DNA of 64,000 nucleotides. Source: Chrysomallon squamiferum (taxonomy: Eukaryota > Animalia > Mollusca). Where the stretch lies: positions 868,001 through 932,000 of the forward strand of contig CM022667.1 of assembly GCA_012295275.1 (NCBI GenBank), read 5' to 3'. Position numbers and translations under genes: made by a program. This document shows positions 3,507 to 3,549 of this stretch, in pieces. Every line of letters starts with the position of its first letter. Positions within the stretch are counted from its first letter, which is position 1. The notes beneath the pieces are model-generated. The model saw only the letters and a list, made by a program, of their open reading frames with translations. It did not search any database and was not told the DNA's origin.

Positions 3507-3549
3507 ATGTCCCGTCGCAAGCAGGCCAACCCCCGACCGTTAATTACAG
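3507..3549 (+). CDS. RREB1: RREB1 coding exon 1: MSRRKQANPRPLIT + 1 nt (NuRD-recruitment motif)
   Basis: ggcatcATG start, with an in-frame upstream stop at 3408-3410. Strong donor CAG|GTAAGT at 3550. Its phase 1 end matches the phase 1 start of the exon at 38513. Confidence 0.8.

Follow-up and report, generated by a model that had tools for sequence, protein, structure and literature searches.

A number of transcription regulators with multiple C2H2 zinc fingers begin with a short peptide motif that docks on the NuRD (nucleosome remodeling and deacetylase) gene-silencing complex. The carriers of this motif were reportedly first listed in papers from 2004 to 2006. Here we compare them with a locus in a stretch of 64,000 nucleotides (contig CM022667.1, positions 868,001 to 932,000), which we call the window. 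At this locus, a remote first coding exon (3507–3549) appears to give a mollusc ortholog of RREB1, which is known as Hindsight or Pebbled in Drosophila, the same kind of N terminus.

The N-terminal consensus for interaction with NuRD has been given as RRKQxxP (PMC11602157), and the main texts of PMC3020727 and PMC11602157 name FOG-1, SALL1, SALL4, BCL11A, ZNF296, ZNF827, and ZNF423 as carriers. The RREB1 of the window shares with these proteins the consensus, its placement at residues 3–9, and the nature of a multi-C2H2 transcription regulator. Unlike them, RREB1 is named in neither main text (0 occurrences of RREB), and the mammalian RREB1 proteins that we sampled are apparently without the motif.

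Two other systems resemble this locus. In Drosophila Ush-B, as may be the case in RREB1, the motif lies in a 14-residue, isoform-specific N terminus, and experiments described in PMC7891773 show that alternative promoters of Ush yield isoforms with and without NuRD binding. Both the isoforms and the binding are experimental for Ush, whereas we infer them for RREB1, and Ush is a FOG1 homolog and so belongs to another gene family. ZNF423 (Oaz in flies) is similar to RREB1 in that MSRRKQ is encoded, in vertebrates and invertebrates, on short first exons that are often missed; the human reference ZNF423 protein has a different start (both according to bioRxiv 10.1101/2020.03.09.984518). But the ZNF423 start is kept in mouse and rat, as described there, while the motif was in 0 of the 59 mammalian RREB1 proteins that we sampled.

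As for RREB1 itself, the human protein and Drosophila Pebbled have been described as repressors that are tied to CtBP, KDM1A/RCOR1 (CoREST), SIN3A, and HDAC1–3 (PMC7495420, PMC3964310, PMC4470282), and NuRD is absent from the main text of PMC7495420. The protein of the window is orthologous to both and keeps a PxDLS-type CtBP motif; unlike either of them as described, it has an additional N-terminal motif. We found no report in the open literature that links RREB1 to the motif, where subscription papers lay mostly outside our scope and alignments in figures could not be searched. RREB1 proteins with the motif are already present in public annotations, so this type of exon is not new to the databases. 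Judging from the sequences, the known carriers of the NuRD-docking motif likely gain a new member in RREB1.

A spliced first exon of RREB1

The 43 nucleotides at 3507–3549 (like all of the features below, on the + strand) translate to MSRRKQANPRPLIT plus one G, which leaves phase 1, and the donor CAG|GTAAGT follows directly. The first nine residues, MSRRKQANP (3507–3533), fit the FOG-type consensus described in PMC3020727 and PMC11602157. The ATG at 3507 is the first in-frame ATG past an in-frame stop at 3408 and has an A at position -3; since no in-frame ATG lies between that stop and 3507, the predicted start puts the motif at the extreme N terminus. RRKQ occurs just once in all six frames of the window. 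Under an order-0 model of base composition, ATG-[ST]RRKQxxP is expected 1e-5 to 1.5e-4 times per window by chance, although this estimate is post hoc, as the motif was picked after it had been seen.

RNA data join this exon to the rest of the gene. Five sequencing runs of one organism, from two studies, contain the large exon of the gene, and four of the five are recorded as RNA. A contig of 327 nucleotides from run X3 covers 3491–3549 and then continues with 30 letters, unique in the window, at 38513. This junction is present in 1 of the 4 runs (X1, X2, X3, and X5) examined at exon 1 (3190–4250); over that stretch, the contigs of X1 are intron sequence only, and X2 and X5 gave no contig, which is not evidence of absence. 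Because the X3 contig begins at 3491, exon 1 is at least 59 nucleotides long, with a minimal extent of 3491–3549 (16 nucleotides of 5' untranslated region and the coding part); assembled contigs cannot reveal the transcription start. Intron 1 is then 34,963 nucleotides long, with GT-AG borders (3550–38512). Across exons 1 to 5, 319 codons can be read without a stop, which takes the frame on into the zinc fingers; in the two remaining phases from the acceptor at 38513, stops come at codons 13 and 55.

On the homology evidence, the gene is an ortholog of RREB1/Hindsight. One downstream exon matched 65 proteins, of which the top one, from Gigantopelta, is 79% identical, and named RREB1 proteins from molluscs and nemerteans are 49–65% identical to the exon of the window. 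Five mollusc homologs are collinear with the window over 40169–55508 (by tblastn), the N termini of the Patella and Pecten proteins map to 3495–3542, and the order of the exons agrees with the RREB1 of Patella, Pecten, Haliotis, and Babylonia over their length. The best matches also indicate that the animal is probably a gastropod.

A preliminary description of this DNA, made from the letters alone, had anticipated much of this. Its phase 1 splice from 3549 to 38513 across an intron of about 35 kb is borne out by the X3 contig and the open frame, its assignment to RREB1/Hindsight by the junction contig and the collinear orthologs, and its NuRD-binding type of N terminus by agreement with RRKQxxP at each defining position. 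Its 43-nucleotide ATG exon with a perfect donor is there in the sequence, but those 43 nucleotides are only the coding part, and 5' untranslated sequence precedes them. It had also placed the exon in a CpG-rich island. The ratio of observed to expected CpG is indeed 1.3–1.55 over 3001–4000, versus 0.48 across the window, and this region is a likely promoter. It is nevertheless unlike a vertebrate-style CpG island because its G+C content is only 37–45%.

Contigs from X1 and X3 also cover 3651–3923, within intron 1, without a joint; these could be unspliced RNA, DNA in the libraries, or a separate transcript of the CpG-rich region. Upstream ATGs with short frames are found at 3360, 3407, 3449, 3460, and 3469 (together 3360–3543), and the one from 3469 runs across the start codon in another frame. 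They could serve as upstream open reading frames if the 5' untranslated region extends that far.

Proposed docking on NuRD

We are confident, on the strength of the sequence and RNA data, that a mollusc RREB1/Hindsight gene has its first coding exon here, spliced to the rest, and that the RRKQxxP motif of this exon likely docks on RBBP4/MTA of NuRD. The peptide of the window (R3, R4, K5, Q6, A, N, P9) fits the consensus at every defining position. Solved structures with chains of at least 20 residues gave no match to the exon region, an uninformative result for so short a peptide. In the structure of RbAp48 with FOG-1, as described in PMC3020727, Arg3, Arg4, and Lys5 account for most of the contacts and Gln6 for further ones, and the two residues that follow are turned towards the solvent. 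Among RREB1 homologs, P9 is present in 32 of 32 distinct 14-mers that were chosen by M[ST]RRKQ alone, and positions 7 and 8 are variable. This conservation, with P9 fixed and positions 7–8 free, matches the contact pattern of FOG-1, from which we infer recruitment of NuRD via RBBP4 and MTA. If the FOG-1 structure is a guide, the acidic pocket at the top of the RBBP4 propeller would receive Arg3, Arg4, and Lys5, and RREB1 with the motif would bring the deacetylase and remodeling activities of NuRD to the sites bound by its zinc fingers. CtBP would be recruited in parallel via an internal PIDLS. This PxDLS-type motif (48781–48795), whose binding is predicted from sequence, is also found in mollusc orthologs. 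Fly NuRD is bound by the peptides of both fly Ush-B and mouse FOG1 (as described in PMC7891773), so a motif peptide can work across species.

The conserved basic N terminus might instead be a nuclear localization signal, or it might bind RBBP4/7 within SIN3, Polycomb repressive complex 2 (PRC2), or chromatin assembly factor 1 (CAF-1) without recruiting NuRD. RRK does form a basic cluster, and SIN3A, RBBP7, and HDAC1/2 fractionate together with human RREB1, according to PMC7495420. We consider this alternative very unlikely. A simple basic nuclear signal needs neither a fixed position nor an invariant proline, whereas in RREB1 residues 3–6 are fixed in position and P9 is invariant. And recruitment of Sin3 or PRC2 by carriers of the motif is not shown in the main texts of PMC3020727 and PMC11602157.

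The motif in other RREB1 proteins

We counted RRKQxxP among named proteins rather than species, so isoforms of one gene are counted repeatedly, and unnamed proteins and some partial models from molluscs are left out of the counts. One source of homologs consisted of 120 of 859 matches, and up to 15 members of each cluster were listed. With these definitions, the motif is widespread. It was found in 29 of 49 mollusc and 2 of 5 nemertean proteins; in invertebrate deuterostomes, in hemichordates (2/5) and amphioxus (1/5) but not crinoids (0/4); and in fishes, in 7 of 11 proteins from cartilaginous fish (sharks and rays are among the carriers), 15 of 38 from ray-finned fish, and 0 of 1 from coelacanth. 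Turtles had it in 11 of 16 proteins and squamates in 0 of 18; birds had it in 16 of 17, a selected ratio given that 16 birds were retrieved with a turtle N terminus as the query. A further search, of 50% representatives, gave 134 new matches, of which 44 were RREB1-like and 4 of these 44 had the motif. Two of these 4 are from the sea urchin Diadema and the centipede Strigamia, and one isoform from Patiria has the motif as well. No protein with a complete N terminus was identified from annelids, brachiopods, crustaceans, priapulids, acoels, or cnidarians.

Other groups were without it in the models sampled. Among predicted proteins, none of 28 from frogs, 59 from mammals, 17 from insects, or 1 from a mite had the motif, and it was not seen in those of horseshoe crabs (0/8), Ischnura (0/2), Nephila (0/1), Ornithodoros (0/1), or Ranatra (0/1). 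Carnivores, bats, rodents, afrotherians, and marsupials are among the mammals sampled. Most of the full-length mammalian forms begin at a common downstream position, which in therians is a Met just before a conserved DLSS block. The turtle N terminus, used as a query, gave 19 matches and no mammal. Most frog models have in common another conserved block at the N terminus instead of the motif, which suggests that the first exon was replaced or that there is an additional one. In Chanos, Denticeps, and Colossoma, one RREB1 paralog has the motif and the model of the other does not; it is possible that function was split between them after the teleost genome duplication.

Most of the homologs with the motif begin at the same Met. 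Some public models extend 5' of it, and the residue just before it is then Ile, Lys, or Met in 12 of 12 cases, with codons that start with A. This is consistent with a conserved start context in models that have been extended too far.

Many of the species with the motif have models without it as well. Among pairs of such isoforms, 10 of 13 part after residue 13 or 14, as expected of one conserved short first exon; two pairs from oysters use a later Met, and in one pair from a turtle the segment that follows residue 13 is skipped. Here, the exon borders in other species come from the proteins and not from DNA. Predicted isoforms that part at this point are found in Mytilus, Liolophura, Lineus, Babylonia, Potamilus, Branchiostoma, and Ptychodera, and some of their alternative starts look intron-derived or like artefacts of prediction. 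Together with the analogy to Ush-B, these isoforms suggest that the choice of promoter may switch the motif on or off. The data for the window show no second first exon. There is a strong CAG|GTAAGT donor at 10488–10508, where intron 1 is mildly rich in G+C, with a five-codon ATG frame before it. We rejected this donor (at 10503) as the end of an alternative coding first exon: it is out of phase with exon 2 and could belong at most to a noncoding or unproductive exon.

Probable ancestry and losses

The preliminary description had seen the motif as a feature of one lineage, either ancestral and lost in vertebrates and flies or gained by exon capture. It had proposed a search for an N-terminal MSRRKQ in other RREB1 proteins, and a start of the form M[ST]RRKQxxP turned up in proteins from lophotrochozoans, ambulacrarians, and amphioxus. 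The distribution, which takes in other molluscs, nemerteans, a centipede, echinoderms, hemichordates, amphioxus, and vertebrates, does not support a restriction to one lineage. With FastTree, we built a tree from 37 proteins picked by hand, with the first 60 residues removed, a midpoint root, and one isoform per row (the one with the motif where present; Strigamia occupies just 42% of the columns). Arthropods, lophotrochozoans, and deuterostomes were recovered, and the motif is in all three. Its presence in lophotrochozoans, a myriapod, and deuterostomes, with a tree that resembles the species tree, leads us to argue that it is probably neither lineage-specific nor captured. Most likely, as the simplest reading of these sequences, the ancestor that protostomes and deuterostomes share already had the motif, encoded by a short first exon of its own, and losses in some lineages followed. 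The ancestral half of the earlier claim is thus favored, but a general loss in vertebrates is not, as sharks, rays, ray-finned fish, turtles, and birds keep the motif.

Could the exon have been gained instead, by capture from a FOG, SALL, BCL11, or ZNF423 gene in one lineage or by repeated independent gain? About six fixed residues suffice for the motif, it is present in several unrelated families of zinc-finger proteins, and its distribution on the tree takes 8 changes. Still, all three of the major bilaterian groups that were sampled have it in the same place and on an exon of the same apparent length, and the patchiness is explained more simply if one short exon was lost repeatedly or missed in annotation. 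A gain seems extremely unlikely.

The motif was probably lost more than once. The sequences point to losses in therian mammals and insects, and perhaps also in frogs, squamates, chelicerates, and one teleost paralog. The case for loss is best for therian mammals and flies; since gene models frequently omit short first exons, it is less strong for frogs, squamates, and chelicerates. It might even be that mammals, insects, frogs, and squamates all keep the motif and that a short, remote exon was simply not annotated. Such exons are often overlooked: for ZNF423, 67 of 165 ortholog models are without their short first exon (according to bioRxiv 10.1101/2020.03.09.984518). Models without the motif also stand beside models with it, and those of coelacanth, chimaera, and crinoids are without it despite its presence in close relatives. 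On the other hand, none of the 59 mammalian proteins has the motif, most full-length forms share a downstream start, and no mammal is among the 19 matches to the turtle N terminus. In flies, the sequence analysis of the proteome described in PMC7891773 gives Ush and Oaz as the only proteins with the motif. We think it unlikely that missed annotation explains all of these groups, but it may do so for frogs, squamates, and chelicerates.

Several points weigh against a spliced, translated, and ancestral docking exon with later losses. The junction between 3549 and 38513 was seen in a single contig from a single run of the four. If the ATGs at 3407, 3449, and 3469 are within the 5' untranslated region, they could damp translation from 3507. 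The absences rest on predicted proteins, in which short first exons are often missed, and our samples were without RREB1 sequences from human, mouse, monotremes, or Drosophila.

With these points in mind, we lean slightly towards a broader scenario for RREB1. The bilaterian ancestor's protein would have used two corepressors, NuRD via a tag encoded by one exon and CtBP via PxDLS. The NuRD arm would have been lost independently in therians, in insects, and in one teleost paralog, while alternative first exons would toggle the tag elsewhere.

RREB1 is a much-studied transcription factor linked to RAS/MAPK signaling, and its described corepressors are CtBP, CoREST/KDM1A, and SIN3A. With a canonical tag for NuRD in most of the other groups of bilaterians, one more gene family would join a short list of carriers, and an ancestral partner has probably been lost from the RREB1 proteins that are studied most. 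If so, the human, mouse, and fly proteins, which are the basis of most work on this RAS effector, would be derived exceptions without NuRD. RREB1 of fish and birds may behave unlike the mammalian protein, and chick or fish models would have a function that is absent in mammals. The loss of one small exon would be a clean and testable case of corepressor rewiring, for which bird versus mammal and the two teleost paralogs are the natural comparisons.

The rest of the gene

No match within intron 1 was listed by tblastn with five homologs. Exon 2 (38513–38595, 83 nucleotides) encodes an acidic linker rich in Ser and Pro. Contigs from X1, X2, and X4 join 38595 to 39306, which is 3 of the 4 runs examined over 38485–38900, a comparison in which the 5' side of exon 2 was masked (the repeats at 38485–38519 were skipped); the X4 contig runs 246 letters beyond 38520. 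Exon 3 (39306–39560, with its 5' end from RNA and a predicted 3' end) contains the next in-frame Met, residue 74. Exon 4 (40184–40388) encodes the first C2H2 fingers, with the first Cys at residue 142, and is 55–65% identical to mollusc RREB1 by tblastn. Exon 5 (41138–41509) encodes another C2H2 finger, as identified by Pfam (zf-C2H2) and tblastn; the boundaries of both exons are predictions. The remaining coding exons (42261–55514, with approximate ends) come from alignment to homologs and Pfam, and they are collinear with full-length mollusc orthologs.

The large zinc-finger exon opens with a tandem CAGCAG acceptor (42261–42264). Within it, there is an apparent frameshift of 1 nucleotide at 42598–42603, with homologs aligning in two frames on either side; an error in the assembly or an allelic difference could account for it.
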